Below, one piece after another: positions 277 through 47,906 of a stretch of DNA of 48,996 nt. The stretch is from positions 1,178,001 through 1,226,996 of the forward strand of contig OZ237747.1 of assembly GCA_965178125.1 (NCBI GenBank), given 5' to 3'. The DNA is from Bilabrum cf. latius. Its lineage: Eukaryota. Positions within the stretch are counted from its first letter, which is position 1. Each line of letters starts with the position of its first letter. A model generated the notes under the pieces. It did not search any database, was not told where the DNA came from, and saw only the letters and a program-made list of their open reading frames with translations. A program made the position numbers and the translations under genes.

Positions 277-2346
277 ATGTCTAGAAGCTGTCTTTTGCGC
301 AAAGAACGAATAGCAGCTAAGGCTGGGCGGCTAGGCGTCGATCCCTTCGAGCTTGCCGCCCGAGACAGCCAGGAAGCATCCGGGCCGCCTCCGGAGGACG
401 CGCTGCCATTTTCCGGCAATCAGTCGAGCTTCAACGTAGAGCCTGCTCTGGCTGGGGCAATTGTACAGCATCGAGCATTCAGTCACAGCGCTGCGCGACT
501 GGAGTCTTTGGAGGATGTTTGCGCAACTGCGGCTCTCTGCCCACATTTCGATCCGTGGGAGCCTGGGACGACTGCTCGAACACCTTCGAGGTTTTTCTGT
601 CTTCTGTTCAAGCTCATGCTAATGCGACCGACCAAAGATCAGCTGCTTCGAATCCTGCAGAGCTCAATTGCCGGACCACAGGACGCCGTCTTGGAGGAGC
701 AGACCGAGGACACGAGTGCGGCCGCGGCCCTGGCAAAGTGCGGCCAGCCCCAGCACAAGCCGGGGGCATCGTGCGCCCCGCGCATCCTTGCCATGCTGCT
801 GCTTCGGTACTGCGCCGACCAGCGCACCCTGTGGTCCTGGCTGCGCCCCTTCCTGGACGACGCACAGCCAGTCCGAGCAGCCGGCGGCATGGACCCCGGG
901 CTGAGGCTCAAGGCAGCACCCGATTCCCTGCCTGGGCCATCGGGACCCGACGCCGTGGAGGCCTGCAGATCGCTGTGGCGGGCCCAGTCGGATTCTCGGG
1001 CCGCCCCCACGGTGGGGGCAGTGGCCAGGCACCTCCTGCTGGCCCCTCGCTTCCAGGACGCGATGCTGCCGCGGCTGGCAGTTCCGGTATAGCGACGGGT
1101 TGAGGCGCTGCTGGGCCTGCACGCCATGTCCAGGCGGTGCATGGGCCGGGCCTGGGAGCTCCGGTCCAAGTGGGTACCCGGCGCGGCGGTGCGGTGGCAC
1201 GCGGGAGGCGAGGAGCAGACCCCGGGGGCAGAGGGGGGCATCGGCGCGGGCAAGGCCGCAGATGGTGGGGCGGGGTGGAAAGAAGGGGCGGTGAAGAGGG
1301 GGGCCACGACCGAGGAGGCCTGCGGCAGGCGCTGCGTGCTGTGGCTGACGGAGCGAGGGGGTGGCATAGGCGCTGGTGGGGGTGCGGGCGGGGCCGGTGC
1401 AAGTCGAGATGCGATGGTGGACATGGGGTACCTGGACATGGCTGGGGGGTTCGGTGCTGCGGCGGGCGGGGAGGGCGGTAGCTCCCTGCCACCTGGGCTG
1501 CGGCTGCCCGTCCTCTCTGAGCTATCCGGGACTGGCGGGAGTGTAGGTGCATCCAGGGGTGGGGCGGGAGGGCTCAAGTATGCGGGGGGGAGGAGCTCAA
1601 GTGGTAGTGGGGCGCGTTCGTCAGGGGCCCGGGGATACGGCCGTGGTGGCGGTGGCGGCGCGGGGGTGCGAGGGGGTGGCACTCGACGCAAGGGGAAGGG
1701 ACAGCAAGGCAGCATGGCGGCGATGATGCTGGAGGAGGAGGAAGAGGAGGACGAGGAAGAGGAGAAGGAAGAAGATGGGGAATACTATGAAGGCGTGGGT
1801 GGGTACGAGGATGAGGGGGAAGGCGCGTGGGAAGCGGATGGAGGCGATGATGAGGCACAGGGGCAAGAGGAAACAGCCAGCGGTGCTGGTGATCGTAGTG
1901 TGACGATTGAAATTAGCAGCTCTGGCCAGGTGGAGGGCCAGCAAGACGCCTCTGGCGCCACGAGCAGTGCCGAGGAGCCTGCCGATGCTGGGCCCGCTGG
2001 CGCGGGTGCTCCGGGCTCCATGGCCGCTTTTGCTGCTATGATGCGGGGCGGGGAGTCGTCTCGATCCACCGGTGGAGCGGGCAGCGCGGCCAAGCCCCGG
2101 GTGGAGCGCGCCGAGGATGACGCGATGAGGCTGGAGCAGGCGGGCAGGGGAGGCAGGGACGTCGATGCGATAGGGGACGACTCGGAGGAGCGAGCCCGGG
2201 AGCGGGATCAAGCACCCGCTGGTGGGAGTTTCAATGATAGTTCCAGCCAGTAGCAGCACCAGTCAGGAAGTGGTGCCGGAGAGGCGAAGGAGCAGGGGGA
2301 GAGATAGCAAGTGCCCCAGGCAGCTTCCAACATGTGGAGCTTCTGA
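277..2346 (+). CDS. PRPF38B: Pre-mRNA splicing factor PRP38 family protein (PRPF38B-like) with long Gly/Glu-rich C-terminal extension
   Basis: Motifs LPFSGNQSSFNV, FDPWEPG, FFCLLFKL, LLLRYC, LWSWLRPFLDD and LPRLAVPV*RR match the PRP38 domain. ORFs 154-1092 and 1126-2253 share a frame, joined through TAG at 1090, 2251 and 2305, and end at TGA 2344-2346. Start ATG 277 is the first ATG after an in-frame TAA at 148. Confidence 0.8.
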
Positions 2347-2619
2347 GTGCGGGCCGTAGAGGAATTTTTGTTCAACGGTTGAAGCTGAGGTCTAGCTGGC
2401 TTTAGACACCAGTCACGCCGGGGAAGAGGTTCGCCTCTCGGTCAGGAGCACCGATCGCGATTCGCGATCCTCGCGATATGACCCTCACTCTCCCTCTCGG
2501 TGCCAGATGCCATCTTGATCTTGGTGTCATCTAGCTCAGGCAAAGCTGCCCGCACTCACCCCAAGAATATTTGGAGCCGAAAATTCCAAAATAAAGTGGT
2601 AACGCAATTCATTGCTCCG

Positions 2620-6819: not shown

Positions 6820-9800
6820 TCACCGGGGCATGCTCAGTTTCAAAGGCGAGACCCTGCTGCCGGGGTGCAGCGCATCATCGAGGCTGGCCAGGGCCCGGGT
6901 GAGTCCCCGGATGTTCTCCTGCCGGGTGGGGGACGACGGGATCACGCCACTGCTGGCACTACCTGCAGCTCTCCCACCCTGGCCCCTCCTCTGCGACCGG
7001 GTGCGCACCCCGGGCCCCGCCCCAGCCGCCTGCAGAGCGGCCAGCTTCCTCCTGAGGGCCTTCCGCAGCGCGCTGAGCTTCTTGCGCACGCCCTCCCCCA
7101 TCGCCTTGCCGCTCGCACTCGTCACACCTGCCCCTGCCCCTGCACTCGCCCCTGTTCTGGCCGCGACCGCCCCCGCAAGCAGCTCCAGGGCGGGTGCGAG
7201 CAGCCCGACGGGATCGTCCCGGTACAGCTGCGCGGCGTCCGCCAGCACGTCAGTGGCCTCGGCGGCGTGCGCCAGCGCCCTGCGACAGGCCCTGGATCCA
7301 CGGGTGGATTCGGCCAGCAGCCGCATGCAGAGGGAGGCCAGCTTTCTGTGCGGCCTGCTCAGGTTGCAGGACCGGAGGGCCGCCAGCACCACGGGCACGG
7401 CGCTCGAGGCCGCCATGGCGTCACCCACGAACGGACCGGAGGGGGCCAGGGCCAGGAGCTGCTGGCAGGCGGACTGCACGCGGGACAGGGATCCGGAGCG
7501 CAAAAGGTTCCGTACGGCGGCCCGCGTCCTGGCTCCCACGGTCTCGGCCGCGGTCGCCCGTGCTGTGGCCTGTGCCAACTTCTCGCGGGCAGCGGTCACG
7601 GCGGGCCCCGCACTTGCCCTCATGGCGGCCCCCCTCCACTGGGCCTGCAGGGCCAGCACGGCCCCCCTTGACCTACGGCTCTCCTCGGCCATGCGATCCG
7701 CCCTTGCCCTGGCCACTTGCGCCTCCTGCTCGGCTCTCGCCTCTTCTTCGCGCCGGTGCTGCGCCCTTGCCGCGCGCGCTTCGGCACGTCCGCGGAATCC
7801 CCTCCAGAGTGCCTGCAGCGAAGCGGCGGCCCGCGCCTCCCTCTACTCCTGCTCCCGTTGTTCCCTCGCGACCCGAGCCTCCTCCTCCCTGGCCTGTTCC
7901 TCCTCCATGGCTCTCGCCTCCTCCTCGGCCCGCTGCCTCGCCGCCCTGGCCTCGTCCTTCATGGCAGCGAACCGCCGCCGCTGCAACGCCCCGCGGGCCA
8001 ATGCTCCCAGCTGCTCTGCCAGCCAGGTCAGCCCGTCCAGTTTGGCCATGTCCTCCAGCATCCGCCACCAGCTCTGGATGGCACAGGCAGCCAGCACCTC
8101 CTGCTCGCGCCGGGCCTCTTGTTCCTTGGCCTCGTCATGCGCCTCGGCTCGCCGCCTCGCGCGGGCCTCGCGCAGCAGGCGACGGCGGGCGGCGCGGGAG
8201 GCCTCCAGCGAAGCGGCCGCCTGCTCCGACGCGCGGGCGGCCCGTCGCGCCCTGGACAGCGCTCCCTCGACCCCAACGGGAGCTGAGCCCGAGGCGGCAC
8301 CGCTACTCGGGGCGCGATGGTCCGAGGGCGGGAGGGTCGGGGGCACAGCCCGCCTGACGCGCCTGCTCCCCCCCACGGCATCTCCCGAGGGTTTCGAGGG
8401 GGCCGCTGCCGCGACCGGTTCCGGAGCCGCGGCAGCGGCCTCCGTGCGCCGCTCCCGGACTCGCCTTGCCCCTTCCCGCAGCACCCTCTGATTGGCGAGC
8501 GCGTGCAGCAGCTTGCGCCGGTAGAAGGCGCCCCTGCACCAAGCCGACAGCTGGGCAGCGGCGGCTGCCCGCTTCTCTGTCTGAGAAGCCGCCCTTGCCC
8601 TTCGCCTCTTGAGCTCCCCGCGCGCATACCTCCGCCACGCGGCCTGCACCCGCATGGCGGCCCTGGACTTGCGCGCCGCAGGGGCCAGCACGGCCCAGAG
8701 CAGTCGGCCGCAGGCCAGCACTGCCCTACCGGCCACGGGGACGCCAGCACCGGCAGTCGCGCTCGCCCTGGCTGCCGCTGCCGCGATCGTGTCATGGGGT
8801 GGCAGCGGCAGCGGAGGCCCGTCCAAGGCTACGACAGCCCGCTGCACGGCCACGAACCTCTCACTGGCACCCGCAGAGGCAGAGGTGCCCGCCGCGTGCC
8901 CCGGACCCAGGGCCAGGCACCTCGGCAGCAGGGCGGGCGCGTACCTGTGCACCGCCAGGGCCAGGGCCTTGCCGTCGCTGCACAGGCAGGCGGCGGCGAG
9001 GGCGGGACTCATGTCTCCAGCACGGTGGGGTGCCGATGCCGCCGACTCGTCGACTGCCTGCGCCAGGGGAGCGGCGCCCGGGATGCACAGGCACGACGGC
9101 CCAGCGGACGCGAGAAGCCACGCCAGCACCAGGCACTCGGCCTGCCGCTCGGTGGTGCCAGTGCTGCTGCTGGGTGAAGCTCCGGCACCAGATGACGCTG
9201 CCGGCGGCATTTTGCGCGCAGCCTCGAGCCACGGGAGGGCTGTGCGCGCAGCCATGCCGGTGGGATCTGCCCTGCAGAGGGCCCGCACCTCTGCCTCGAG
9301 GGCCGCGCGGGACCCGGGCCCGGCCAGGGCACCGGCGCCGCCGCCGCTGCTACGACCCCCCACGGCCCTCCCCGCGGCCCCTCCCAGGGAGCCCCTGGGC
9401 CTGTCTGCCTCGAGGTCCGCCGCCCGCTGCAGCGCCGCCCACAGCACTCCCACCGACGCCTCCGCGGAGCCGTCCGCGATGGCCTGGGCCAGGGCGGCCT
9501 CGGGCGACGCGCTCTTGCGTCTCATCATGCTGCGGAGAGTGCCCCCAGCGGAGGGTACAGGCACGGCGGACACGTCCACGCCCGCGCGGGAGAGGAGAGA
9601 GAGGGCCGCGCCGACGTTGCGGGAACGGACCGTGCGCGTGGGGGCGGGGAACCGCAGGATCCGGCGGGCCAGCTAGAAGGGTGCCGTGAAGCAGTCGCCC
9701 TCGCCTGTTCCTGCCTCCCCATCGGTGGCCTCTGCCTTTATTCCCTCAGTGGAGGAGGAGGAATCCGCACCAGCACCCGGCGCCCGTTCCCCACCAGCCG

Positions 9801-12117
9801 ACAGCAGCCGCTCCCCCAGCAGAGCCAGCCGCACCCCGTCCGCCAGCGCCGATGCCAGGTCGGTCGCCCCCCTGCACCGAGGCACCCCCCACGCCCGCAG
9901 CTCCACCTCCTCGTGCGACGCCAGCGCAGACACGCCCAGGCCTAGGACGTGCTTGACCGGGTCTGCCTCGCCGTGGAGCAGGGGCACCAGCAGCCTCCGA
10001 AGCAGCTCCCGCGTGCTGCGGACCTCCGAGCCAAGCCGGAACAGGCGGTGCGGGGCCAGTGGGGGGTGACCTCGGGGGCACAGCAGCGGCTCCCCGTTGA
10101 GTGGGCCCTGCCCCGTGAAGGCGGCGTCGAGGAATGCAACGAGGTGGAGCGTGCGACGGAGGGCGAGCCTTGACTGGTCCCGGGTGTGCGCGGCGGTCTG
10201 CGCGCCCGCTGGCGTCTCTTCGTGCCGCATGCGGGTCTGCTCGTCGAAGAGGATGTGCGTCTTCCACAGCCGGCGGAGCGTGCGCTCGCCGCCGTCCGCA
10301 GGGGGCACGTGCACGTACACTGGCCCTTGCCCCCTCCCGTCCGCAGCACCGGCTCCTCCCATGGCAACCGCCAGAGCGTCGGCACCGGCATCGCCCTCAC
10401 CGAGCCCCTCCTCCGCCTCCTCCACGGGCCCGCCCTCCCTGATCTTGACTTTCTTGAGCACGTGCACCGAGGTGGCTGCCGCCGTCTCGAGACCCGCCCG
10501 CAGCCAAGCGGGGTGCACGCACCGCAGCGCCGCCCACAGTTCCTCCTGCAGTCCTAGGTCTGCGTGAGGGGCCCTGTCGTCGCGGACCGCCAGGGCACCA
10601 GACTGCACCGCGGCGTCCACGCACTTGCGGACGTCTTCAGCGGCAGGGTCCCACCAGGCCCCCACCGCTGTGCTGCGCATGGCCGCCACTCGCCGCTGGA
10701 GGTCGAGCTGCCGACGGGCAGAGGCGGCCCGCTCGGCCTGCTGGGCGGCTCGCGCGGCGGGAGAGCTAGGTGCAGCAGCTTCGTCTGCCTCTCCATCCTC
10801 GCGCGCTCCCAGCTCCCCCATTTGGTTCTCCTTCTCCTCCAGCTCTGCCTCCACCCGCGCGGCCTCCTGTTCGGCCACCTCGGCCTCCCCCTGCCACAGC
10901 GCCGACTCAGCCGCCACCACCTCTGCCCTCCAGCGCACCTGACCCCCTCCCGCCGACCTGCCAGCCCCATGGTGCCTGTGCCTGTGCCTGGAGGATGAGG
11001 CCCGCCTGGTCCTGGTCCTCGCTGCCATCGAGGAGGAGCGGGAGGAAGCGCCTGACCCTGAGCCGGTGCCGGAGGGGCCACTCGATCTTCCCCTGGCCCC
11101 CTTGGCCCCCTTGGTGGGGGCGGCGGGGGGGCGCTATTCCCCCCTTGCGATGCAGTGGTGCAGCCAGGCACCCAGCGCGCGGGACTGCTGGTCCAGTACC
11201 TGGGCGGTTGCAACCTCGGGGGCCACCTGGTGGGTGGATGCTGGCTTGACCGGCCCGCCCCGGCCCCTTGCAGTCCTGGGCCCCGCGCTCGCGGCCCGCT
11301 TGAGCTTGGCCGTCTTGGACCTGGCTGATGCGGCCGCCTGCCTTCGAGTTGGGGCGGCGCTGGTGGCCGCGAGCCCCGGTGCGGTGGGCCCCGCTGTCTG
11401 GGCCAGAAATCTAGTTTCTCTCGCCTTCTGGGCACGGGCATGCTGCTGCTGTTCCCTGCGCCGCCTCGCCGCTTCCTGCAGCGCCGCGGCCGCCTCTCCG
11501 CCCGCACGCTTCTCCTGCTTCTTCTTCTCGTGCTCTGCCATGCGGCGCAAGAAGGAGGCAGGGGGGCCGCCAGCAGCTCGCCCGCTTGCTTTCACTGGAC
11601 TTGATGAGCCGTCTCGCGAGGATACAGCGGCTCGGTTGCTGTCCCGTGGCGCGAGTGCGCGTCGGCCCCCGCCGGCCTCTCGCCGATTCGGCGGGCACTG
11701 GATCTGGCACCGGACCGCCATGGGACCCGCGCCCGTGCTGAACGTTAATGAACCAGCTGCTTTTTCACTTCGCGATGTACTCTAGAAAGCTTCGGATGGT
11801 ATGCTCCACTCCACATCGACTGATTGGCTTGCGCCTGCCGGCACGGCAGTGCCAGCTGCAGTAATGCTGCCCCAAGACACGCCGTTCGTATCCCTTACCT
11901 TGCATGGTCTTTGAGCAATATTGACGGATTTTGTTGTGGGGTTTGAAAACGTAAGCCGGCCTTGCACGACCAAGCCTTGAGAGGCATCGCTCGGAATTGC
12001 GACGCAACCAAAATCGAGCACTGGCTCTGAGCCGAATGCCCTAAGCTCCACATCTGCCTAGGGCAAAGATGCTGAAGCCACATAATGTATGCTGTTTGTT
12101 GCAGCCACGGCAGACAT
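6820..12117 (-). CDS. ASPM: Abnormal spindle-like microcephaly protein homolog (ASH-like, CH and IQ motifs, C-terminal HEAT/ARM-like region)
   Basis: One frame of about 1765 codons broken only by TAG (12058, 11782, 11134, 9673, 7843). Contains HADLGLQEEL..HPAWLRAGLE, DLASALADGVRLALLGE, several IQ-like motifs (VQAAWRRY, IQSWWR, LQALWRG, LQAQWRG) and LRSCNLSRPH. Ends at TGA 6820. Start ATG 12117 is tentative. Confidence 0.85.
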
Positions 12118-12347
12118 GACCGCAGAGGTTGACCTGCGCAGCCACACACTTGCCCAACGGCCGGAAAAGACTGGCGCCGCGCATCGTTCGATCGTGGTTC
12201 CGTAAGCCTCCCGCCAAATCCACCGGGGCACTTGCCACAATCTGCTCTAGACTCAGCAGACCCCAATCAAGAGATTTGCGGTTACTAGTTATACTTTACA
12301 GGAAAAGTAGACTGACCCTCGCAAGTAGGAACACAGAATCTGCTGTA

Positions 12348-14937: not shown

Positions 14938-15102
14938 GGTAGGGCCAGATATGCACAGTTGCCGTTCGAATGCTGGTTGAGTGCACTTACACAGGGCGAA
15001 ACCGCTTTTCTTGGATAGCCACTGCATCCAACTGTTCACGTCATTCCACCAAGGATATTAGTGCCGCAGCCTGTACATTGTGCTCAGAAAGACTGTGCAA
15101 CA

Positions 15103-19542: not shown

Positions 19543-19659
19543 TGTTTTGGAATTAGCTGTTGGCCGTACGAAAGTAACCTATTCAATCAGATCGCATGGC
19601 AAAGATTGCCATGTCTCATATGATACTCGAAGCTCAATACATACCATAAGCCCTACTTT

Positions 19660-29187: not shown

Positions 29188-29201
29188 TGTGGTTAGACTG
29201 C

Positions 29202-30041: not shown

Positions 30042-30427
30042 AGGAGGCGGTGAAACTATTCACCAATTTCCGCTTGTTGAAATACCTGGCGGTGCTCGCG
30101 GCGGCGATCGTCAATAACTAACCGCACCTTACAATACCGCGGTTCGCCTCAAAATTCTTCAGCGCTGGTGGCACCTCAAGACCCTCACCAATGAATACTT
30201 AGCTGCCTGTTACATTAAATCGAGTCACATAGCTGTGTAGGGGCTATGGTAACCGACTGGGAATGATCGGACACGGCGTGAACAGCATGAGGGAAACGCA
30301 CAGCGGCAGGCATCGGCTGGTGAGGGAGTATCGAACCCGACTGCGTTTCTTGCCTCATTGGCGTTCCAACCTTTAATCAACTAGGCTGAGTCGGCTCTTG
30401 CCGCTTACCTGCAATCATCCCGCGCAG

Positions 30428-32203: not shown

Positions 32204-32392
32204 TCTGCACTGTCGCTGCTACTCTAGCTACGTTAGGGTGGTCCGATTCTAGTACAAACGAGTCGCCAATCGGCTCTTTGGGTGCGATTGCGAGCATAAC
32301 CTTATTGGTTCGGAGAGTCGCTGCATTGTCACACGTATTCGCCGAGCAGACGGCGGTATCGCACACAAAGCCATACATCCCCTGCACGCATG

Positions 32393-35300
32393 TCAATCAT
32401 CTTCCATGTCGTCCATTCGCTTAACTTTGCCGTCAGCGAAATCCCGGAGTTTCTATGCTTCCGCAGATTTTGACGACGGGGAAATGCGCCCGGGGTCACC
32501 GTGCCGAGCCTGCACTACGTCGCTCGAGCCAGGCTGGAAGACGGTGCGACCGGACTCTGATACTGCCATTTCGATTCCGGACTTGCTAGACACCTAACCA
32601 TCCTAGCCCAGAGCCTCTCTTCCACGAGCAGCGTTCCTCTTCAGGAAAGACCGGGATTGGGAGTGCGCAGCTAGCGCTTGCTTAGCAGCTTCGCGCACCT
32701 CCTCCTCCGCCGATGGACGCAGGAGACCTCCCTCTCGGGCCAGCCACGAGATAGCTGGTGGGACGAAGGCGCGCACGTGCCGAATGCTTGCTTGCTGGAC
32801 CTCATGCTGCGCCCTGCCAATATAAGCAATGCTGAGGGAGCCTCCTCGCGGACTGGTGGACGGCTCTGCCGGATCCGGCACGTACTGTACCTGATACCAA
32901 TCGTCGCCCCTCTGGCTCACCATGGCTGCTGCGTTGGCCCGGTACTCGGCGTGGGCAGCTGCTTCCATCTGCGCGAGCTTGCTCGAGTCGTTGCCCGACA
33001 CGGCTCTTGCCTGCGCCATGCGCCCAAGGAAAAGCTCGTACAGCTGCCGCACCTTGGCGGAGGCACCATCGTGCAGAGACCCCGTGAGGTGCTGCACACA
33101 CTGTTTGGCCACGCGGTCTAGTGTATACAACTGGAAGGCATGGGTCCCTGCCAGTCGCCTGCACTCCTCCTCAAACCTAGACGGGTCCATGCTCTGGTCG
33201 ATCACCGCGTACAGTACCGTCAGAAACTGCTGGTACGGGTCCTCTTCAGGTACACCTTGAGCCCCGGTTGCGCCGTCCATGGCCTGCTGCGCGGATGCAT
33301 CTCCGCTGGAAGCACCGGACGAGACCGCTTGCTCACGGTCAACCACATGAGCCACCCGGCGTCTTCCGAAGCCTTGACCGCTCCTGCACAACTTCTTTGC
33401 GATTGAAAGGCGCTCGCACAAAAGTTGTAGCAGCCGAAAGAACAAGTAGTCTGTGGGGGATCCGACGTAGGAGCTGACTCCAACACGCACAGTCGTGTCA
33501 GGCAAAGCACCAGGGGCCGCGCGTTCGCTCAACTTGGCCGCCACCGCAGACTCTGCACTTGCTGCCGCGGTGGACGCAAGCGGGCGAACCTTGCCAGCGA
33601 CGGAGTGCAGCATGGCTGCGCTGACGTCATCATCGTTGCTCCCGCTTGACATACTGAACCTGATGCCGCCCCCAGATACCCCGGATACAGCTGCATCGAA
33701 GCCAACAGACCCAGCCTGCACATCTTTGCCACCCTAGGCTGCCGGCTGAACATCAACCGCGTTCAGGACAGCCACATTAGTGGCTCCTTCACCCCAATTC
33801 AGGAGAATTTCATAGCGCACATCAGGCAAATCCTCCTGTAGCGATGCGCTTGAATCGTCCTCCATCGCTGCCTGTGGCTTCGACTTCGCCTTGCGGCCTC
33901 GCGATTTGCCCTTGCCCTTGCTACGACCACCAGCTGGTTGCTCCTCAGGCTCTTTTGGCTTCATTTTGGACACAATCGCTGCCGCAGCTGCAGGTAGGGA
34001 CTCGTCTTCTTCGAGCACGCCGTGATTGCCCCACCTGCAACGCAGCACGACGCCGTCGCCGTAAGGAGTGGACACTGCCGCACCGATCGGCACGATCCCG
34101 GGTCCTGTGGGGGACATGGAATCCTGCATCGGCGTCTGCCAGCCGCTTCCAAGCCGGAAAAACCTTGACAAAAACGTCCGCCAGACGCCCGAAAGTAGAG
34201 GCAGATCAGACTTCACTACGATCTGCTCCGCTGCATACTCGAGAACAGCAACAGCATCTGGAAGCACGTCTAGATCTGGGAGTCTGTAGTGCAAGGTAGC
34301 ACGGGCAACGGCTCGAATCCCACCGGAAACGTTAGCATCGTTGACAAAGGCGACATCCTTCGACGCAAGAGCCGGCAGTGCAGAGGCATCTTGCTGGGGC
34401 ACATCCTGCACAGCCCCAGCAGAGCCATCATCAGCCCCGCCAGGCTCGCTGCTGGCGCCATCTGGGCCAACCGCGGTCTTGGCTTCAAGCTCCATCTGAG
34501 CAGATTTCGCCATGGCCTCGGCCTTCTCCACCGCGGCCCGCATCTCCGCTACCAATGACTTCGCCATGGTTGCCTTCTTGTCGCGCTGCTTGAAATAGAA
34601 CGAACGGTGGTCCAGCGACTTGTGGTAATTCCGCTCCATGACAGCCTTCCAGTGCCGGTTCAGCTGCTGCCTCGCCCTCCTCCACTCAAGGTCCTTCTGC
34701 TTCAGCCGCTGCAGAATGACAGGGATAGCACCGGCTGGGTGCTTTCGGAGGAGCTCTAGCATGACACTCGCCTTAGTGCCGTACACGCGCGCGATACTGC
34801 GCAGGTGGATCGTGCTCAGAGACCTCCGGTCGAGGCGAACCTGCCATTCATACCCGTCAGCAGCAGCTAGAGCGCGGATTTCGCTGTCCAGTGGCTCCAA
34901 TGCCCGGATTGTGCTGTGGTTGTTTGCGACGATTTGATCTACCTCGTATCGTTCGTCTTCGCAGCGGAATAGGGCCTCCTCGTACACATTTCGGCGCATG
35001 TGCTTGAAGCTGAAGTCCTCGCTGCCAGTCGGGACAGACACCCAGATATCGTTCAGCAGGCTCTGTTCCCATCGCGACCGCTCTGAGCATGCCTGCATGG
35101 GAAACCCTGCTGGCAGCTGGCGGTACGATCGGCCGTTGGTCCTCTGCTTGGACAGGTCCAGTTCAGCCACGGGTAGCGACTGGAACGCATCCTCTTCTGT
35201 CGCTGCAGTGCTGCGCTTTGGGTGCAGAAGTGCCCGCACATCTTCGAGCAACGATAGGGTGCGCTGGGAGTGCCCCAGAACGTCTCCCAACAAATTGAAC

Positions 35301-37126
35301 AGCTCTTGGCGGTTCAATATTTGCTGCGCGTGCAGCTCGAAGCACTTTAGCACCTCCAGCCAGGCTTCTCTGCCCCCCAGGGCCGCCTTGAGCCGAATGA
35401 AGAGACTCTACTCCGTGGGTGGAAGAGACACGCGCAGCTCCTCGTCCGCGTCACGGGCGGCAGCTTCCCGGGCGATCCCACGCGCTGACCGGCCCGGACC
35501 CATGCCCACCATCATGCGGGCCTGCGACCTGCGCATGTCTCTCGCCCGGCTGCGCTCACCAGCAGCAGCAGCAGACCACCTGTCGTGATCCCCAATCGCC
35601 ATACCATGCCTGCCGGCTGCCAGTCCGCGGTCTCCTGCACGCACCCAGTCCCGAGCGCCCGGCCCTCCCCTGCGCATTTCGCGCTGGCGCTCCGCCTCCC
35701 TGCTGAGGCGCTCCCGAGCCTGAGATTGGATTGTGTCGGGGAGGAAATACGCAAAATCCGTCAGAAGATCTTCGTGGTCTGCGAATAGGTGAGACACGCG
35801 GTCCAGCACCGCCTTGATGTCCTCCCTGTTGCGCTGGTACGAGTGCAGGATCTCCAGGAAGCTCTTGTAGATCTTGGGCTCGTTTGAGAACCTCCGCTTG
35901 ATGCGAGTCACGTACTGGATTGCGTGGTCGAATTCCATCGGCTAGCCTTGCTCGCGGGCTGCAGCTGGCCGTTGGCCAGCCCGGAGCGGGACCCCAGGAG
36001 CCCCGGGAGGTGGGCCTTGCGGTGGCAGGGGAGCCTGCGCGGGGGGAATGCCAGGGTGGGGGCCGTCCGCACCTCCATCACCCATCCGTGGTCCAGGGTG
36101 TGGGATCCCGCCCATCTGCTAGCCAGGCTAGGGCACAAAGCCAGGTATGCTGTTGCCATCGATGCGGAACCCGGGCGGGAGGAATGTGTTGAAGCCGTAG
36201 ATAAGCTGGGGGTGGCCTTCAAACAGCTCCGAAACACGCCGAATCACACCAGGCGTGTCGATTCTACGAAAATGAAGCAAATAAATGCCGACAGTAAAGG
36301 GAATCATCAGTTTCAGCTGTGCACAAGGCGAACTTAGCCGCAACATTGTGAAATGGTACTTACGACTGAGCCTTGAACTTCTTCATGATGTCCAGGAACT
36401 GGTTATAGATCTCTGGGCGGTCGCTAAACCTCTTCTTGACCTGCAATGAAAGAAATAAAACGGGTGAAGAGAAAACATGATGGCTGGAAGCTCCCAAGGA
36501 GCAGCACTACGGCTGCAATCACTGCTCACCTTGTCGAGATATGCGAGGGCGTCTTCTACTTTCAACGCCCTAGATTGCTGTGGAGCTCCACTTGTCTGCG
36601 CTATTTGCTGCTGGGGCGGCTGCTGCGGCTGACCCTGTTGATGCTGCTGCGGAGGTTGTTGCTGCTGCGCTTGGGACTGCTGCGGAGGCGCCTGCTGCGC
36701 CTGCGATTGCAGCTATGACTGCTGCTGCTGCTGCTGCTGCTACTGCTGTTGTTGCTACTGCTGCTGCTGGTGGTGGTGCTGTTGCTGAGCTGCGACCTAC
36801 ATCATCGCCTGGCCAGGTGCGAGCTGCTGGTGCCCAGCTCCCGGGTACATCTGTCCTTGACCCATGATGATTCGCTGCTACGGCGCACCTTGAAGCATCT
36901 GCTACTATCGCATCTCCATTACACGCTGCTATGCGGCATGCTGCGCATGCTGCGCCTGTTGCATTGCGGCTTGCTACTGCTGACCGGCTGCAAGCTGTGG
37001 CTATTGCTGCTGTGACGGAGCTTGGCTGGGCTACGGTTGCACGGCACCTTGCCCTCCGTCTTGGATAACCATCTTCTTTGGGGGCTACCCATACTCATCG
37101 CCGTCGTCCTGCCTTTGCCTCTTCAT
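32393..37126 (-). CDS. SIN3: Paired amphipathic helix co-repressor Sin3
   Basis: Introns 36529-36441 and 36363-36264. Contains PAH1 ([14 protein letters not shown]...GFNTFLP), PAH2 ([16 protein letters not shown]), the HDAC-interaction domain ([40 protein letters not shown]) and Sin3-C (FEEECR...LYTLDR). About 20 in-frame TAG. Ends at TGA 32393. Confidence 0.96.
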
Positions 37127-37285
37127 CCGCTGTGCACGGCAAAGTCTGTCGATATTTGGAAATCGAAGTATTCTGCCAAATCAGATTATCATGTGATTAT
37201 TCGTTACAATAATGAATGAACGTTCTATGATAGCAGCGAACCAGTTGAACTGAAGGATCAAAGCTAGGATTCCCAAGTCCCCGTG

Positions 37286-38748
37286 ATGACTGGAGTTACA
37301 GGGTTGCTCACATCGCTGGTACCAAAGAGTGTGTTTCAATTTGCGGAATGGTTCGTGTTCACTTTCATTGGAGGAGTGGTTATGCCGGTGAGTTCATCGC
37401 GATCCTTCCACAGGTGTGACGTTGCGCACAGATCGGTGGGGTACCACAACAGTTCGCCGTGTTTCCCATACTTTTCGCAGATCATTGAGATGAACATTGT
37501 ACCCGACTTTCTTCTCCGTCTAGCCACGCGACTGGCGCTCGATTACAGAGTTTACAACTCGAACTCCTAGGGAGACACCAAGGTTGACCTCCACAGCGCA
37601 AAACTAGCGTACATTGAGGATTTGAAGCAACGACCAATCGCAGAGTAGCAATCAGCAGCAAATAAGCAGCACTACGAGGTTCCTACTGAGCTGTATGATG
37701 TGAGGTTTTTCGGCAAGGGTGTTCCCGCATGTTTTCCGTGGAGCCTTGCACAGTCTCCATTCTGCTGATCGCGCTCGTGCCCGCCGGGAACAGAGTACCC
37801 CATTGTGCAAACCTTTTTTCGCAGCTTTGTCTTGGACCTCGCAAGAAGTACAGCTGCTGCCTGTGGCCGGAAGGGTGCGACTCTCTAGCCGAGGCTGAGG
37901 AGCATTCCCTGGAGCAGGTCTGCCAAAGAGCTCGCCTGTAGGAGCTGCCTCAGCGCGAAGGGCGCGGTCGAAAGCCCAGGGTGCTCGATCTCGGCTGCGG
38001 CTGGGGCAGCGTAAGCCTGTACATTGCGGAGCACTTCAGAGGTCTGGAGGTGGTGTCTGTGTCCAACAGCAAGACCCAGAAGGAGTACATCGAGGCGCAA
38101 GCCAAGCACAAGGGCCTGGACAACATCACAGTGCACACCCAAGATGCGGCTCGACTGGACCTTCCCGCTGATTCTTTCGACCGAATCGTGTCCGTGGAGA
38201 TGCTGGAGCACATGAAGAACTATGAGCAGCTGTTTGGCAAGCTTGCCACGCTGCTGCGACCGGGCGGGCTCTGCTTCTTCCACATCTTCACTTGCAACGG
38301 CCAGCCGTACCATTTCGAGGAAGGGTGGATGGCGGACGAGTTCTTCACTGGGGGACAAATGCCCAGCACGGACCTGCTGCTGCACTTCCAGAGAGACCTG
38401 GCCCTGGAGCAGAGCTGGATCATGTCCGGTGTCGAGTACTAGAAGACGCTCGAGGCATGGCTCCGTCTCCTGGACGAGAACACGCAGGAGGCGCTGGAGC
38501 TCTTCCGTCGCACGAATTGCCCCAACCCAACGGCCCAGCTGGTCAAATGGAGGATGTTCTTCTTTGTGTGTGCCGAGAGCTTCGGGTATGGCAAGGGTGA
38601 CGAATGGGTCGTGTCACATTACCTGTTCCGCAAGCGTGGCGGGGGCTCGGCACCGCCGGCTTCAACCGTGCAGACTGTCGAGGAGCAAACTGGTGCCCAG
38701 CGGCGGCAGGCTGGGGCCAAGCGCGGTCAGAGCGGACCTCACCTGTGA
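37286..38748 (+). CDS. SAM-dependent methyltransferase, CMAS / coclaurine N-methyltransferase-like family
   Basis: Introns 37388-37480 and 37700-37824. Motifs ANKQHYEVPT, LGPRKKYSCC, VLDLGCGWGS, VSNSKTQK, FDRIVSVEMLEHMKNY and WRMFFFVCAESFGY. TAG at 37568, 37646, 37939 and 38440. Ends at TGA. Confidence 0.92.
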
Positions 38749-39571: not shown

Positions 39572-39589
39572 TCTTTGAATTACTCCGAC

Positions 39590-42500
39590 TCATGTCATCC
39601 GCATACCACGCCATGCAGCTTCTACCACAGATGCTACGCTACTAATCAGATCGTCGGGCACGGCCACCTCGCCGGACTTGCCAGACAGGCAGAGCCTCAA
39701 ATCCGCAAGTGCACGGGTGAGGAGCCGATCTTCGGGTTCAGCGGCTGGCCATGCGATACTAGCCTTACTGGTGAGCAAAACAGATGCGGCTGGCCTGCCC
39801 TGGTACTCGGCAGTTGGGCTGCGCCCAACGTGGCCCTTCCAGGCACCAAGCGCGTCCTCCGCTTGCAGAGATGGGGATCTCGATTCATCTGGTCCAGGGA
39901 TGGAGTCTGCCAGCCGTATCCCAGCAGCAACAAGCGGCTGCTAAACCGATGCAGGGCTCGGCAGCGACGCTTTGGCCCACACGCAGACACGTTCGGCAAG
40001 CGCCCGAATTGTGCCAGGCGATGATGCCCACACCGGAGCTGACCGCTTGGAGCTTTCCATCCGAAAGTGGATCGAGACATCACACGGACCCGCTGGTACC
40101 GGAGCCTCAACCCTACATGGCTCCAGCCCGTCACCCCTAACCCATAAGGAACCTGTCCGGCCGACTACGCGAACCGCAATGTCAGCCTGCACACCCGAGT
40201 GCGTTCCGGGTACGCCTGGCAGCTCGCACTCGAGAAGGACCTCTCCTTCCGTACATCGACGAGGGTGCACGCTGCTCTGGCCAAGCCGTAGCATCAAAGC
40301 AGCTGACACGTTGCTGGCCACCCTCGCGGCCTCTGCCACGTGCAAGGAAGCCCCTGCCGGCAAGCAGCACGCCAGTGATCCCTGATGCATTGGCTTGGAC
40401 CGTCCACTCGCCGGCGATGCAACCAGTCGGTGCTGCTCCCGCGCTCCTGCTGGTTCAGACGAAGCCTACACGTCTTTTTCCCGCCTCCCTTCGCTGCTGA
40501 ACATGCTTATCAGGCTTTCTGCCAGCGCGTCTGATACTCCGCCAGCTTCCCACTCTACAATGATGGAACCCCCCTGCTCGCAAACTGCACGCAAACCATC
40601 CGCTCTAAATTCTTGCATAGGGGACCACCTAACAAATACTTGGGGAGCAGCAGACCCTGCGGCAGCCGCTGCTCTTGCACGAGCAGTGCTTGCTCTTGCA
40701 CCAGCAGTGCTTGCAGGCTCGCTAGCCAAGGCAGGTTCATTCCATTCGTCAAACTCCTGCGGGTCCGTCACGCCCCACTCTGGGGCCGATGCTTGCCTGC
40801 GTGGGTACACGTCGCCTGCATCGCGCAGAACAGGGTCGCAACGAACCCACGCACCAATCCACTGCATGCGGCTAGCGTGCATGATGCCAGCGAAACTGGC
40901 AGCGGCATCTGCAGGGCTGGAGCTGGCGTGCTCAACAGCAGCGCTGGAGCTGGCACTGGCACTGGAGCTTGCGGGACTCGCAGCCGCGGAGGCGGAGCTA
41001 GAGCTTGATCTGGGAGGGGGTCGCGTTTCCTCGTCCCAAACATCGAAGCAGAGCGCGAATCTCTGATGTAGCCGTGATCTGATCGAGTGCTAGTTTGAGC
41101 GCACCGGCAGCACGGTGCGGCTCCACAAGCGGGATTGGTGGAGAGCGGCTTGCTATCCAGCCTGCACTGAGCTGTACACCTATCTGCTGGTGGCACCTCT
41201 GGTTCGAGATACAATGCACCCTTCGATCCCTGCAATGATAGCTAGGCCGGCAGCCCCCACAACGCGCCTTCTTTTGGGGGAGGAGCCGTCATCTTCCGCG
41301 TCTGCCCGAGAGCGAGTAGCTGCCAAAGCTGCGATCGCCCCATCAGCAAGCATGCCTCTCAGAGCCACTCGCCGGTCCTCTCGAAACTTCTTGTGCACAA
41401 TTGACAGATTTCCAGGGCCTTCGATGTGAAACGGTGCAACCTGCGGCTTAGGCTTGCCTTGTCGCTTGCACTGCTCTTCCAGTGCTTTCCAGTAGTACTC
41501 TGTCAGCTTGTTCTTGAGTCGATTCATCTCATTCAGCTCGCCATGCACCAAGATGATTGTCTTGGGCATCCCCATTGCCCGGATCATTCCCAGATTCTCG
41601 TTCAAGTCTGCATGTGCCATAAAAGCTATTTCTTCGACAGAGCAGTTGAGCTTGATGGGCGCACTGCCTCCCCTGACCGGCATGATTTCTCTCGGTCGAC
41701 CCAGCAGCTCACGGGCCATGGTCCCTTCTGGATTGAATCCTGTAATGATGACTCCATTCGACCGGTGCCCCGCCCACGCCTCGAGTAGCTACCGGCTCGC
41801 GCCGGTGTGAAGGAAACCGGGCGCCACCACCGCAACGCAGGGGCCAGCTCGTGACATTGCCAAAACATCATCTGCAGATCGCACTGCCTGTGCGTACTTG
41901 AGATTCCACGGGTTTTGACTCAGCGTCTTGGCTTGGATCCGGCTGTTCATAAAGGCTGAGTAGGTGCCGTAGATGTCGAGCGAGTTGCGAGATTGCCTCG
42001 AGCAGTAGAGCAGGGGAATAGCCTGCAGCTGCGGATTAGCACTCCACAGCTCATCAAGAATCAGAAGGAGCTCCTGAGCGCGCCCAACAGCAGAGGCAGG
42101 CAGTAAGCACCGGCCTCGCCGCCCAACGATCGCCTCGACCGACTGGCAAAACCTTCGTTCCCTGGCTTGCCGTGACTCGAGTACTTTTATGCCGGTGGTA
42201 CTTTCCCCGATGATTACGTCAGGAGGTTTGTCTCCGATCCCTGATGGCAAGTCTGCAGCCATCAGATGCCGATCCTCTGCACCAGTCCAGTCGCCAGTGT
42301 ACAAGACTCGCAAGCTCCCAAAGTCAAGCATCACCATCGCAGCTCCTAGCACATGCCCTGCATGATAGAACGTGGCAGAAACAGGGGATACATTGCTTGC
42401 GGCGCCGCTGCCCGCCCGAGCCCCACGATCTGTCCTGCTCGCAATCTCAACCTTCTCTCGGAACTACACGGCCTGGATCCGGCGAACGCTCCTGTCCACG

Positions 42501-43055
42501 TCATCTTCCGAGAATAAAACCGAGCTTTCACCCGTGACAGAGCTAGATGAAGCCCCTCCGCCTGCTTGCCCCAGTGAGTGCCTAGAAGAGATCCCTCCGG
42601 ATGCTGCCTTTGATACCCGAGCCTGATCCGAGAGTGTCAGCCGCAAAACAGCGATGGTTGGATCGGTTGCAAAGACTCGACCCCGAAAGCCACGGATGCG
42701 TTCAGTCAAGTACGGTACCGCTGCCGCATGGTCCACGTGAAAATGACTGCTTTGAAAGTGAAGCAGAAAGCTGATTCTACATACGTGCACAACCACCAAA
42801 CAGCGCCAACACTGAACGAAATAGCTCTCACGATATAATCAGGGCATCGACATCTTCGATTCGGAAGCTTTCCAATCTACTTCCTGGAACTCCAAGCTCA
42901 GAGAGCATCGGCAAGCTCTCCTTGCCTCTCAGGGATGCCGCCAATCCGCAGTCCAGCATTACGGTAGTACCCTTAAACCTGATTAGGATACAGCTGCGGC
43001 CCACCTCCTACCCGCCGCCTAGTGGAACAACTTCTAGCTCTGTAACACTGTCCAT
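39590..43055 (-). CDS. CPSF3: Cleavage and polyadenylation specificity factor 73 kDa endonuclease (CPSF3/Ysh1)
   Basis: PLGGG*EVGRSC...MLDCG, intron 42831-42747, SHFHVDH, HAGHVLGAAM, LYTGDW..EDRHL, GRAQELLLILDELW, FMAHAD and LVHGE. TAG at 43008, 42464, 41789, 41180, 41090, 40466 and 39941. Ends at TGA 39590. Confidence 0.95.
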
Positions 43056-43340
43056 CTTCTAGAGCCGTGTTTTCGTGAATTCCTAAACAACTTGAAGGAG
43101 GCCGCACAATAGCGGAACCAACCACTCGCCTCTGCCGCGGCGCCCACAACGGCGGACCGCCAAGGGAATTTCTATACATTGCGGCATATTGGCGCTTCAA
43201 ACGCGTATGGCTATTGCATCAGAAGTAGATATTCTCACGTGGGGAATCGGAGTAGGTGTACTGGTGACTTGTGTGATCGCTCCATTGTCCTGGCTGGTGA
43301 TTCGATCCCGCGGAAGAGCCTTTAGGAGTGATTGATAGCA

Positions 43341-46300
43341 ATGGCTCTGTTTGCGCTAGGTGGTATGAACGCAGGTTCCAGCTCAAGAGATAGCGCCGGG
43401 CGTGGGGCTGGGGCCAGTCTTGGGCGCGGCCGCGGCCGCGGGCGTGGGCGTGGCAAACCAGCAGGACGTGGCCGTGTAGGCCACTTGAAGCTGAGGGTGG
43501 GCAGCCACACTCACGACGCAGCCGGCGAGAACAGCTAGAGTTGGAATGACCGTGATTAGGTAGTGCCCGACCGTGCTGAACGACATAGGGATCAACGGAA
43601 GGCTTCTGCCTACGAGGGTGCCGCAGAGTGGGCGACGGGGGACAACCACAGTCTCGCTATTCCAAGTCGTGTTAAGCGCCGAAGCAGTAGTAGCCGAGCT
43701 TCCATTAGTTCAAGTGCTAAAATTGTGCATGCTGGCTAGAGGTCCGACATGGAATCGTCTGGGTCTGCAGCATCACTGCTTCTTCGCAAGAGTCTTCTCC
43801 ACGTATCTGGCTTGCCAGCCAATACTTCGCATGCTCAAGCAGCCTTGCTGCTACGTTCTGCAATTGAGACTTGTGCCTAGGGGTCTGTCGCCGATGCTGC
43901 TGAAATCGCTGTCGTGGACGTTTACCGGGATACCTGCAAGGCCCTTGTTCGGCCGCAGGCCACTGCAGCCGCACTTGTGCGAGCCTCCAGGTCTAGCCGG
44001 GGCATTGCTGCACCTGGAAAGGCAGGGGCCGAGGTGGAGTTCATAACGAAGGGTCGTAATGCCCCCATCCAATCAAAACGCGTGCAGTGCTCGGTGGATG
44101 CAGGGACCATCACGATTCGAAAGGGCAACCCAGGCCATCTAGAAGGCAAGCGGCTTGCTATCGCCCACTCCGTTGCTGCCTCTTGGGACTCGACTGGTGA
44201 CGCTGAAGATCTACCCGATGGTGTTCAACGAATCGACCCACCCAGGAGCGAACTCGAAAGTAGATCAAAGGCAACGAGCAGGCCGGAGTCAAGCGCCGGG
44301 CTGGATCTGCACTCTGAACGAGAACCGAGCCCCACCCCGCCGGCAGCCCAATCGAGTGGTTTTCTGGGCACCACGGTGGAATCTAGATCTGCGGTCGGTG
44401 GGGCCTCCGAAGCCCTGGCCAGCCTTGGGATTCCCCAGGAGTTTGCTGCGTCCATGCAGCAAGCAATGAAGCAGCAGGAGACCTTCGAAGGGGCCCCAGA
44501 TGCCACCGATCAGGAAGGCGCCTCAACAAAGGAAGAGACGTCGGCTGAACAGTCTGGACGCGATGCTGGGTGTAAGCAGCCGCCGCAGCACAAGGAACGA
44601 GCCGACTCCGTTTTGAAGCACAGGCGCACGGGCGGCTTGAAGCGGCGCGTGGAATCTCAAGACTGGCGAGGTGATGACGAGCTTGAAGACGGGCAAGCCA
44701 TGTGGAAGACTGCAGAGAATTTAAAGCGTGCTGAGGGCCTGTGGGGCCGGGGCATGTGCGGGAATCTCTACTCCCCGGACAGCAAAGCGAACCGACACAC
44801 TCGAGAAGGGGATAACCAGCTGGTGCCATTCGAGATTCCCAAGGACGGCATCCCGCTGCCATAGCTGCCGATATCTGGCGTCTCCCCTGTAAAGGCGTCC
44901 CTTGGCCCCGGCATTACTGTTGCCTCGTTTTCTGACGGCGGTCCCTTGGGCTGGTTCAAGGGCAGGCCTTCCCTCAAGGCCCTGGCAGTTGCGAAGCACA
45001 CGAGGTCCTCATCCGGAGATGAGCAGCTCGACTCACGCGAAACAGAGCAGGTTCGGCCTCCGTCTGTTCTGCTCCGTGTGTGTGACTACCTGTTCGGGGT
45101 CGTGATTGATGCTGACAAACAAGGTCACGACCCTCGTTTCGATGGACGTCCGACTCTGCTCGAGATTCACGAGTTCCTCTTCAACCGGACACGAGCTGTC
45201 CGCAAGCACCTCGGCACCCAGGGCTTCAAGTATGGTCAGCGGAACGACTGTATAGCAATGGAGATCTTGGAGCGATGTGCTAGGTACCACATATTGATGC
45301 AACACGAACTCTGCGATGTCTCAGGGTTTGACCAAGGCCTGAACTTGGAGTAGCTCTCTGCCAGCCTGAAGGGTGCAATAGCGCTGTATGACGATGCGTG
45401 GGAAAGGCACGAGTCTTTCTGTCGCTCTGTGGCACGGACGAATTCGAAACCACCAACGCGGCTGCGATCACCCTGTGAGGCAGAGATTCGCGGGTTGTGG
45501 CTGTTGCTGCATGCGTCGGATGCCAGGGAGAGAGTTGCAGTCTCGCTGCATCTTAAGCAACTCAGACCTGAGCTCTTGAGGCACCCGAGGATCCTGAATG
45601 CAATATGGCTTTACAGGTGTGCCGACTGCAACGACATCGCGTCGATCCTGCGTGGGCTGCGATCTGGCTCGTGTGAAGGAAGGCACCTGTCATATTTGGA
45701 GAGGTGCTTGGTCCACTTTACCTTACGTGAGCAAAGGATGCGGGTGCTACGATCGCTGCAGAGTTTTGTTGCTGCGAAAGGAAGTGATGCTGCAGGCCGA
45801 GGCACCGGTTCGATTTCGCTCGGGACTGCTGCTGAATGGCTTGGCGTAGACGAGCGGGAACATCCCAAAGCCCGTGTAAAGTACTTGGCCGAGTATCACG
45901 GTGTGCGACTTGTTCGAAGAGGTACGGGGCATGTTGTATGGCCTGAAGGGAAGAAGCGCAGCCAGCGCTTTTTGCCCAATGGCAAAGACAAACCGTATGT
46001 GCACTAGCGGGAGACTTCCTTGGTGCGGCCACCCGATGGCGTGGGACCGGTGGGGTCAGACTCTCGTGAATCTGGGCTTGACCCTTGTGCAAGAGCCCGA
46101 ATTGTACTGGGGGTGACGTGGGCGATCCAAAGCATATACTTACTGCCCAGTTTCGGCGTTGATAGCAGTGGGGAAACGATTGCCGTCTCTGGTCCAGAAA
46201 GGCGCGAAATCATGGAAAAGCTGGGCGGCGGGGGTCTCCGTCGAGGCGGTAGCATTTGGTGTGGTTCTTTGCCCGAAGGGTATATTGTCACTCGCGATGT

Positions 46301-47906
46301 GACGGGAGAAGTCGGTGAGACGCACGAGGCGCTGCCTCCCGCGCGTCGCGTTCGAAGCTCACTTTACTCTACCATTGACGAGCCGCTGCGAGCTCCTTCC
46401 GCGTACAAGACAGAGTCTCTTGGCAGCGGCAGTGCTGGAATAGCCAGCGTCGATCCGTCTGCAGCTCAGGAGGTCGAGCAAGAACCGGACCCTTAGCACA
46501 AGCTTGATGCAGAGCATGAGGAGTAGGATTACAGCACCCAAGGGCAGAATCTTGCAACTGAGGTCCCAGCCGAAGTTCAACCCAATTCCACAGGTGCGAT
46601 AGTTACAGTCCAGGATCCACCTAGCAGAGTGGAGGACTTCTCATCAACGATTCCATCAGTATCAGCATCCAAATCTCCTGGTGATGGAAATGGATTGTGG
46701 GATGTAGGCCATTAGACTACTGTGCAGGAGGTAGCCTCTAAATCAGACAAGCTTGAATATTCTGGTTCGAGTATCGCTGGGCAAAGTGAACGTGCAAGTA
46801 TGGATGGCGCGGACTCCGGCTTCCCCCATGCTGGCTTTGATCTTGTGACAGCTTCCCCCACGCCTCCCCCCGGCAGCGGCTTTTCGTTGGGACCTGCGGA
46901 TGCATCCGCTTCCATTGAGTACCCAGCACGCACATTCGATGCTGTAGACAAGGAAGGCACATTTTTGGGCGATCGAGTAGCTGAACGTGATGACCAGTCA
47001 TCGTCTCCCGCAGGGTCAGGGGAACGTGGTGCTGCTAGCTCAACTGCACATGCATCCATCGATGCCGTCGACTCTGCCGACACGATTACGAGGTATCCCC
47101 AGCGCCCCATTGGAACGAAGCGGCCTCGTGCGTGTCTGTCATTGATGCATCAGTGGCACAAGCCTTCGATTCAGCCAGACTTGCGAACGAGCCAGTGGGC
47201 ATCCTCAGCGTTGCATTACCGACGGGAGCGAGACCGAACTCTGGCTCGGGATTCTTCGGCTGCACGAGTTGGTTCCAGTGTCGCTTTCAGGCACGAGACA
47301 CAGGCTGCTGCCATTGGAACTGTCAAGGTAGTGCAGCTACATAAGCTGAAGGCGGCTTTTGGTGCAATCAAGCAAGCTTGCTGCGACGTACGTGAGCGCC
47401 GCTCAGCTGCTCTACGCGTTCCAGTCGGATCTGTGGCTGGACAATCATCACCGACGCAACCCGTGGTGCGATTGGGGGTGGCCAGTGGAGCTGGATCTTG
47501 GAACTAGCACTCTCCTGCACTGGCAGTGTCGCCATCTCGCGCATCAAAGCGAGCCCGTGTTGATTCACCTAACACCTCCGATGGTCTTGTAGAACTATCA
47601 CGTAACCGCGATACCGATGGAATTGCTCGTGGAGTCTGTCAAGGGGCTCCCAGATCGTTGGCTGTTTCTGCCCAGCACCTGGACACTCGCTGGCAGCGTT
47701 GGGCTTCTGGAGCCTACGGAAGCATTAGCACTCCAGCCGCAAAGCAGGACATGTGGTAGTTACCCCGGAGGCAGTACGCTGCTGCTAGTCAAACTATGCC
47801 GAATGCTCAGAGCTCAGTGTTTGGCTTCGACGAATCAGACGAGTCTGATGTGGAAAGTGAAGGTCTGTATGACCAACTTGAGCAGATATTGCTAGATATG
47901 GACTGA
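43341..47906 (+). CDS. SAC3: SAC3/GANP family (TREX-2) mRNA export factor
   Basis: Intronless frame of about 1521 codons with 12 TAG. N-terminal RG repeats. SAC3_GANP motifs VRPPSVL..VCDYL, HEFLFNRTRAVRK, ILERCARYHIL and NLE*L...LYDD. Ends at TGA 47904-47906. Confidence 0.88.

Follow-up and report, generated by a model that had tools for sequence, protein, structure and literature searches.

We analyzed a stretch of 48,996 bases from Bilabrum cf. latius (contig OZ237747.1 of assembly GCA_965178125.1, positions 1,178,001 to 1,226,996, forward strand), which is called the window in the following and is numbered from its first base. We are confident that the nuclear genes in this window use UAG as an ordinary glutamine (Gln, Q) codon and that UGA and UAA end the genes, which corresponds to NCBI translation table 15; that the organism is a stramenopile near Cafeteria; and that at least one more distant relative, known from metagenomes, shares the code. 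The assignment of UAG to Gln is supported by homology alignments, by a calibrated tally of codons over alignment columns, by spliced RNA-like contigs and by exchanges of TAG with CAG or CAA in the relative. These results bear out an earlier reading of the sequence alone (the sequence-only reading), which had proposed that UAG means Gln while UAA and UGA are kept as stops.

The reassignment is visible in the length of the open frames. With the standard stops the longest stop-to-stop open reading frame (ORF) in the whole window has 609 amino acids (aa), and three ORFs reach at least 500 aa. When TAG is read as sense, 14 ORFs have at least 500 aa, among them ORFs of 1810, 1524, 1329, 1082, 976 and 867 aa; the conserved genes are open only with TAG as sense. 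The sequence-only reading had stated that the frames stay open for kilobases if only TAG is read through. Reading TAA as sense lengthened no ORF anywhere in the window. Reading TGA as sense produced 12 ORFs of at least 500 aa; six of these overlap one another on the two strands of a stretch with 71-75% G+C (GC) at 6.6-11.8 kilobases (kb), and two of the 12 contain no TGA at all. The long TGA-open frames are an effect of composition.

Eighteen ORF segments, each taken from stop to stop, contain 88 in-frame TAG codons, 388 CAG and 168 CAA, which puts TAG at about 14% of the three; none of the 18 has an in-frame TAA or TGA. Some leader codons are part of the segments, so that a few of the counted TAGs precede the likely start Met. 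Twelve segments with homology to Pfam or PDB entries (7783 codons) contain 55 in-frame TAG, no TAA and no TGA, as compared with 117 TAG, 61 TAA and 332 TGA in their two off-frames. Since the segments were defined as free of TAA and TGA, these zeros are partly a matter of construction, and the weight of the comparison rests on length and homology. The Pfam families found in TAG-open frames are PRP38, B9, Mo25, RIO1, SPT16 (five domains), COQ9, Sin3, CMAS-like, CPSF73-like and SAC3/GANP, and these families span TAG positions. Many genes that are unrelated to one another have in-frame UAG within conserved coding blocks, and ungapped alignments run across the TAGs.

Next we consider which residue the codon specifies. 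In strictly conserved blocks the alignments give Gln as the residue at TAG. The TAG in the SPT16 motif AVFXPCK (24971; X marks the TAG codon in this and the following motifs) is matched by Q in every one of 66 homologs, aligned with MAFFT, and in all four PDB alignments (4/4). The same holds for ALVXSGGSY (23373) of SPT16 in the four PDB alignments shown. Of 118 RIO1 homologs, 78 have Q at the TAG of VMFXQC (19 have H and 11 have R), and 66 have Q at that of SARXLFDF (34 have E). At the TAG of PLGGGXEVGRSC (43008), human CPSF73 has Q and Cryptosporidium CPSF3 has C. The eight TAGs that the sequence-only reading had quoted with their flanking peptides (1090, 14714, 21333, 22767, 23373, 24971, 43008 and 45351) were located exactly. 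Its claim that they stand where homologs have Gln held in part: it applies to 43008 in CPSF73, 23373 and 24971 in SPT16 and 21333 in RIO1, and is not borne out for 22767 in SPT16, which faces H, F, H and H in the four PDB alignments shown, and for 45351 in SAC3, which faces N in human GANP.

A pooled tally of codons over alignment columns was made for RIO1 with 118 homologs, exon 3 of SPT16 with 66 and COQ9 with 149. Columns had to be at least 70% filled, and each amino acid was scored by summed log-odds. Two internally duplicated chimeras (P0001 and P0002) were left out of the RIO1 tally, and two near-identical relatives (P0121 and P0188) were excluded from the pooled tally. Over the 11 TAG columns of these three genes Q scored +12.3 bits; T followed with -16.6 and R with -21.7 bits. 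As a calibration, the same procedure recovered the standard meaning for 58 of the 61 sense codons with n of at least 3. The mean frequency of Q was 0.26 in TAG columns, 0.24 in CAA columns and 0.20 in CAG columns.

The TAGs are also present in public sequence data. When words were sampled from 20600-30100, eight public runs contained at least half of them, and four of these runs (X1, X5, X6 and X7), which come from four studies, were compared with the window over 20600-32300 (11.7 kb). The contigs of all four runs show no differing letter and no insertion or deletion in this region. The X5 and X7 contigs skip four GT..AG introns (22592-22677, 23540-23676, 30319-30426 and 30550-30639); those of X1 and X6 are unspliced. 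None of the eight runs is on record as RNA, and three were guessed to be RNA, X5 and X7 among them; the GT..AG joints were taken as the sign of RNA, and in this respect both behave as RNA assemblies. One X5 contig spans the entire RIO1 ORF (20600-22420) and matches the genome letter for letter; another represents the spliced SPT16 message 22520-26244, again with no difference from the genome. Because the spliced contigs are identical to the genome, the TAGs between 20600 and 32300 are not assembly errors, are not edited to CAG and are not spliced out; UAG is kept in the mature mRNA-like contigs of these genes. The sequence-only reading had named transcripts with CAG or with spliced-out TAGs as evidence that would speak against it, and neither occurs in the RNA-like contigs of this region.

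Related sequences carry the same pattern. P0121, a protein fragment from Logan, shares 99% identity with the SPT16 of the window; it covers two of the TAG sites and has Q at each. A second fragment, P0188, is 95% identical to COQ9 and stops exactly at the window TAG at residue 162. The Qs in P0121 are possibly the product of a gene caller that reads TAG. The records of P0121 and P0188 both give a contig of 19,171 nucleotides (nt); if this is a single contig on which a single table was used for calling, P0121 would have real CAG or CAA codons at its Qs. A third fragment, P0190, is 62% identical to COQ9 and also ends at a TAG; it led to the contigs L001 and L002, two metagenome records that are 100% identical over 6187 nt. 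Positions 1-7414 of L001 correspond to 24713-32200 of the window, and the order of SPT16, the gene of the 976-aa ORF, COQ9 and the gene of the 536-aa ORF is conserved. The protein identity between the two is 72% for SPT16, 68% for the 536-aa gene, 48% for COQ9 and 30% for the 976-aa gene. The frames of L001 contain 22 in-frame TAG, no TAA and no TGA, and they end in TGA; its GC content is 0.52 as compared with about 0.56 in the matching part of the window. It follows from this TAG pattern that TAG is used alike in another lineage, one clearly distinct from that of the window. When TAG sites were called well conserved if at least six of 11 flanking residues are identical between the window and L001, five of seven such sites paired TAG with CAG or CAA in the other genome, and they did so in both directions; the pairings in the 976-aa gene, with its 30% identity, are uninformative.

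The ends of the genes were then examined. TGA ends 17 of the 18 ORF segments and TAA one; some of these TGA ends are the ends of exon frames and not of genes. TGA is the usual stop. UAA and UGA are retained as stops in the 49-kb window and in 7.4 kb of the relative. An improbable reading, which nevertheless survives better than the other alternatives, is that UAG is ambiguous, i.e. that it is sense within genes and a terminator in some contexts, for example near the poly(A) tail, as in Condylostoma and karyorelict ciliates. This would agree with TAGs close to the ends of ORFs, which lie four codons before the TAA in RIO1 and 27 codons before the TGA in SPT16. But no ORF segment requires TAG as its end. 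The basic tail beyond the last TAG of SPT16 is conserved in P0121, where the codon in question reads Q, and RIO1 homologs align beyond the last TAG of RIO1.

A further alternative is that UAG is sense but specifies a residue other than Gln (Glu, Lys, Arg or Leu, for instance). Several observations weigh against Gln and are gathered here. L occupies position 6 of SPT16 exon 3 in 35 of 66 homologs and prevails over Q at COQ9 162 (50 versus 30); K prevails over Q at RIO1 577 (74 versus 18) and is found at RIO1 590 in 60 homologs, with N in 35. CPSF73 350 faces E in the human protein, and the N opposite the SAC3 TAG at 45351 was mentioned above. In the Sin3 alignment of 31 matches only two of the eight TAG columns are filled; at X325 the homologs have R in 10, L in six, K in four and Q in one case, and at X147 Q is the top residue with eight of 31. 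Two of the seven well-conserved sites paired with L001 have Arg codons. The density of TAG in 85 bins of 150 codons is not significantly correlated with the content of Gln (Spearman 0.09); its strongest correlations are with N (+0.20) and A (-0.23). In the Q-rich exon of Sin3, seven of 12 TAGs have a Q neighbour, which is weak and at best suggestive (permutation p 0.07), and beyond this exon Q neighbours are no more frequent at TAG than at E or K codons. Finally, the tally is limited to 11 columns in three genes.

Columns that face CAG and CAA scatter in the same way as those that face TAG. The use of TAG seems to follow the local AT content or AT-rich residues, so that the test on bins is uninformative on the residue. 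In the summed log-odds Q is the only positive residue with +12.3 bits, all others being at or below -16.6; the invariant columns have Q (66 of 66; four of four), and most of the pairings in conserved context (five of seven) are with CAG or CAA. A residue other than Gln is hence very unlikely.

Still less likely is that UAA and UAG are both reassigned, as in codes of the table 6 type, and that UAA is merely rare because the genome is rich in GC. TAA is indeed rare, with 347 trinucleotides on both strands versus 733 TAG. However, reading through TAA lengthens no ORF, and the 7783 homology-supported codons include no in-frame TAA. This applies even to the gene for RIO1. No other part of the window is as rich in AT as the one that contains it (18000-22400, GC 0.47-0.49), and TAG, CAG and CAA are equally common in this gene, with 10 each. 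In spite of a GC content of about 0.47, with 10 CAA and 10 TAG, it has no in-frame TAA and ends with a TAA where the alignments of human and Chaetomium RIO1 end. UAA is therefore not a sense codon here, to the extent that 49 kb can tell. The relative L001, with 52% GC, has 22 TAG versus no TAA in frame.

The last alternative, that the TAGs are not translated at all since they are assembly errors, intronic, RNA-edited, parts of pseudogenes or passed by low-level readthrough, is hardly credible. No observation in its favour was found: four runs from four studies agree without a difference over 20600-32300 and the spliced contigs keep the TAGs while the introns lie elsewhere, the TAGs sit within ungapped conserved blocks, a gene can have up to 20 of them (Sin3, 8+12), which is beyond what inefficient readthrough supports, and a relative from two metagenomes has the same pattern.

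The phylogenetic position of the organism was estimated from RIO1 and SPT16. The best named matches are from the bicosoecid stramenopile Cafeteria roenbergensis (49% identity for RIO1, 43% for SPT16), followed by oomycetes and diatoms. In a FastTree phylogeny of SPT16 with 65 rows, the window and P0121 are sister to Cafeteria with a support of 93; they are nested in a clade of 10 rows (99) and then in a stramenopile clade of 39 rows that includes oomycetes and a diatom (100). This is a tree of one gene in which long branches meet, as indicated by a warning of the program. In the window, RIO1 and SPT16 lie next to each other in divergent orientation (20607-26029), and in Cafeteria roenbergensis they bear the consecutive locus tags FNF31_06201/06202. 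Together, the SPT16 tree and the RIO1-SPT16 adjacency put the organism close to Cafeteria among the stramenopiles. The sequence-only reading had described a GC-rich, intron-containing, probably flagellated protist; this fits with a GC content of 0.47-0.75 along the window, with the four introns, with a B9 gene and with the flagellate Cafeteria as the nearest named relative. As an observation in its own right, the RIO1-SPT16 gene pair is conserved across about 45% protein identity.

The SPT16 proteins of Cafeteria and of the nearer relatives P0122-P0125 were called at full length (944-1111 aa), which suggests that they are without in-frame TAG. For Cafeteria, the annotation of SPT16 (1111 aa) and also of RIO1 (836 aa) at full length implies the same.

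Known systems offer a model for the mechanism. In Tetrahymena a tRNA-Gln with anticodon CUA is described as reading UAG but not UAA, and eRF1 of Iotanema has the exchange T32G in the GTS motif (PMC5304391). By analogy, a tRNA-Gln with anticodon CUA would read UAG, and not UAA, in the organism studied here, and its eRF1 would have lost most of its affinity for UAG. It is likely that the mechanism consists of this same pair of changes; the window contains neither such a tRNA gene nor the gene for eRF1.

UAG and UAA almost always change their meaning jointly. The nuclear exceptions in which the two codons differ in their reassignment are presented as only a handful in PMC11687900 and PMC5304391. 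The former lists UAG alone as Gln in Iotanema spirale, Protocruzia tuzeti and two phyllopharyngean lineages, UAG as Leu in a rhizarian and UAG as Ser in Scotinosphaera. The closest parallel is Iotanema spirale (Fornicata), a flagellate outside the ciliates in which, according to PMC5304391, only UAG was reassigned to Gln and UAA was kept as a stop. Iotanema belongs to the Metamonada, an unrelated supergroup, is an anaerobic endobiont and has UAA as its primary stop (PMC5304391), whereas the present organism is a stramenopile with TGA as the main stop. Protocruzia tuzeti and the two phyllopharyngean lineages have the same codon for the same residue, with several independent origins (PMC11687900). 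These are ciliates, i.e. alveolates with nuclear dimorphism; the window has spliceosomal introns and is the end of an ordinary chromosome, with a TTAGGG telomere. The table 6 code with UAR as Gln, known from many ciliates, hexamitin diplomonads and some ulvophycean green algae (PMC2984419), also turns a stop into Gln by one transition from CAG or CAA. Codes of this kind reassign UAA too, in contrast to the absence of in-frame TAA and the TAA end of RIO1 in the window.

A literature search, mostly without subscription journals and with supplements excluded, turned up no stramenopile or bicosoecid with a changed nuclear code. The code variant is already known and the lineage appears to be new, and an undescribed independent origin is plausible. 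We lean slightly towards a more specific interpretation, in which this is the first nuclear code change in a stramenopile: UAG would have become Gln independently, with UAA and UGA as stops, in a small clade beside Cafeteria that comprises at least two divergent lineages (72% identity in SPT16) and in which, in a GC-rich genome, TGA is the usual stop. If this is true, the GC-rich setting contrasts with the AT-rich genomes that are usually invoked for the capture of UAR codons. An independent case in another supergroup, with the presumably standard-code relative Cafeteria on one side and a second lineage that shares the code on the other, would bracket the timing of the change. Such bracketing would permit a comparison of tRNA-Gln and eRF1 before and after it.

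The code has practical consequences. Gene calling with the standard code breaks the proteins of this organism; examples in public data are P0188, of 150 aa, and P0190, of 93 aa, both of which end at a TAG. Annotation and completeness estimates of the genome and of related metagenome bins need table 15. Since RNA-like and DNA runs from several studies contain it, the organism may be in culture and could serve as a model for the uncoupling of UAG and UAA. The runs X1, X5, X6 and X7 are filed under four different organism names, with no difference over 20600-32300, and two metagenome-labelled runs contain small shares of this region; the organism may be present in samples or cultures that are labelled otherwise.

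The genes of the window are described from left to right. An ORF of the PRP38 family on the plus strand (151-2346; Pfam PF03371, E 3.7e-16) has three TAGs, one of them at 1090, and ends with TGA. The longest ORF (6820-12252, minus strand, 1810 aa) has no Pfam match, six TAGs and a GC content of about 0.7, and it ends with TGA. It is rich in Ala and Arg and contains repeated W-R-G/IQ-like motifs (for example AAWRRYARG, LQALWRGFRGR and LQAQWRGAAMR), which may resemble the IQ arrays of ASPM-like spindle proteins. A B9-domain exon ORF on the minus strand (14171-14923; PF07162, E 5.4e-13) has one TAG (14714). The Mo25 gene (14398-16652, plus strand; PF08569, E 1.4e-68) has a main ORF at 15306-16652 without TAG; a candidate first exon, with a putative joining, lies in the ORF 14398-15282 and includes one TAG (RKLLXRVKESI). 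Neither the PRP38 part nor the B9 ORF had a match in the PDB.

The RIO1 kinase ORF (20607-22391, minus strand; PF01163, E 6e-66) has 10 TAGs, two of them before the first Met, and ends with TAA. The SPT16 transcript (22520-26244, plus strand) is supported by Pfam, PDB and the spliced contigs; its exons extend to 22591, from 22678 to 23539 and from 23677 to 26029, where the frame ends with TGA. It has five in-frame TAGs, among them 22767, 23373 and 24971. Its GT..AG introns on the plus strand measure 86 nt (22592-22677; joined in the X5 and X7 contigs and not in those of X1 and X6) and 137 nt (23540-23676; skipped in the spliced contigs). On the minus strand follow the 976-aa ORF (26279-29209), which has no Pfam match, nine TAGs and a homolog in the syntenic L001, and the COQ9 ORF (29202-30059; PF08511, E 1.1e-23) with four TAGs. 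The two frames overlap by eight bases (29202-29209), and a single RNA-like contig (26219-30071, minus strand) covers both; this may reflect tight spacing, overlapping transcripts or one transcript. A gene of no assigned family (30264-32203, plus strand) has a 536-aa ORF at 30593-32203 with three TAGs and the introns 30319-30426 and 30550-30639.

The main ORF of Sin3 (32393-36382, minus strand) contains the PAH, HDAC-interacting and C-terminal domains by Pfam, is matched by PDB entries and has eight TAGs. The Q-rich exon ORF upstream of it (36383-37180, minus strand), a candidate for splicing to it, contains 70 Gln codons, 12 of which are TAG, and its final part is the beginning of PAH1. A CMAS-like or N-methyltransferase-like ORF (37699-38748, plus strand; PF02353, E 9e-33; PDB) has two TAGs. 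The CPSF73-like endonuclease is encoded on the minus strand by a main ORF (39590-42838; beta-CASP/RMMBL by Pfam, PDB) with seven TAGs and by an exon-1 ORF (42828-43196), in which two of the three TAGs lie before the likely start Met and the TAG at 43008 is that of PLGGGXEVGRSC. The last gene is an ORF of the SAC3/GANP family (43332-47906, plus strand; PF03399, E 1.2e-35; PDB), which has 12 TAGs and ends with TGA.

No tRNA (ARAGORN) and no other non-coding RNA, rRNA included (Rfam at the gathering threshold), was detected in the window, nor in L001 and L002 with the same tools. At the end of the window the sequence shows a (TTAGGG)n telomere on the plus strand (48214-48996, about 780 bases), which identifies the window as the terminal part of a nuclear chromosome of a eukaryote. 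Between the SAC3 stop (47906) and the telomere lie about 300 bases of non-coding subtelomere; the genes thus reach almost to the end of the chromosome. The telomere repeat is perfect except for a single variant unit, CTAGGG, near 48561.

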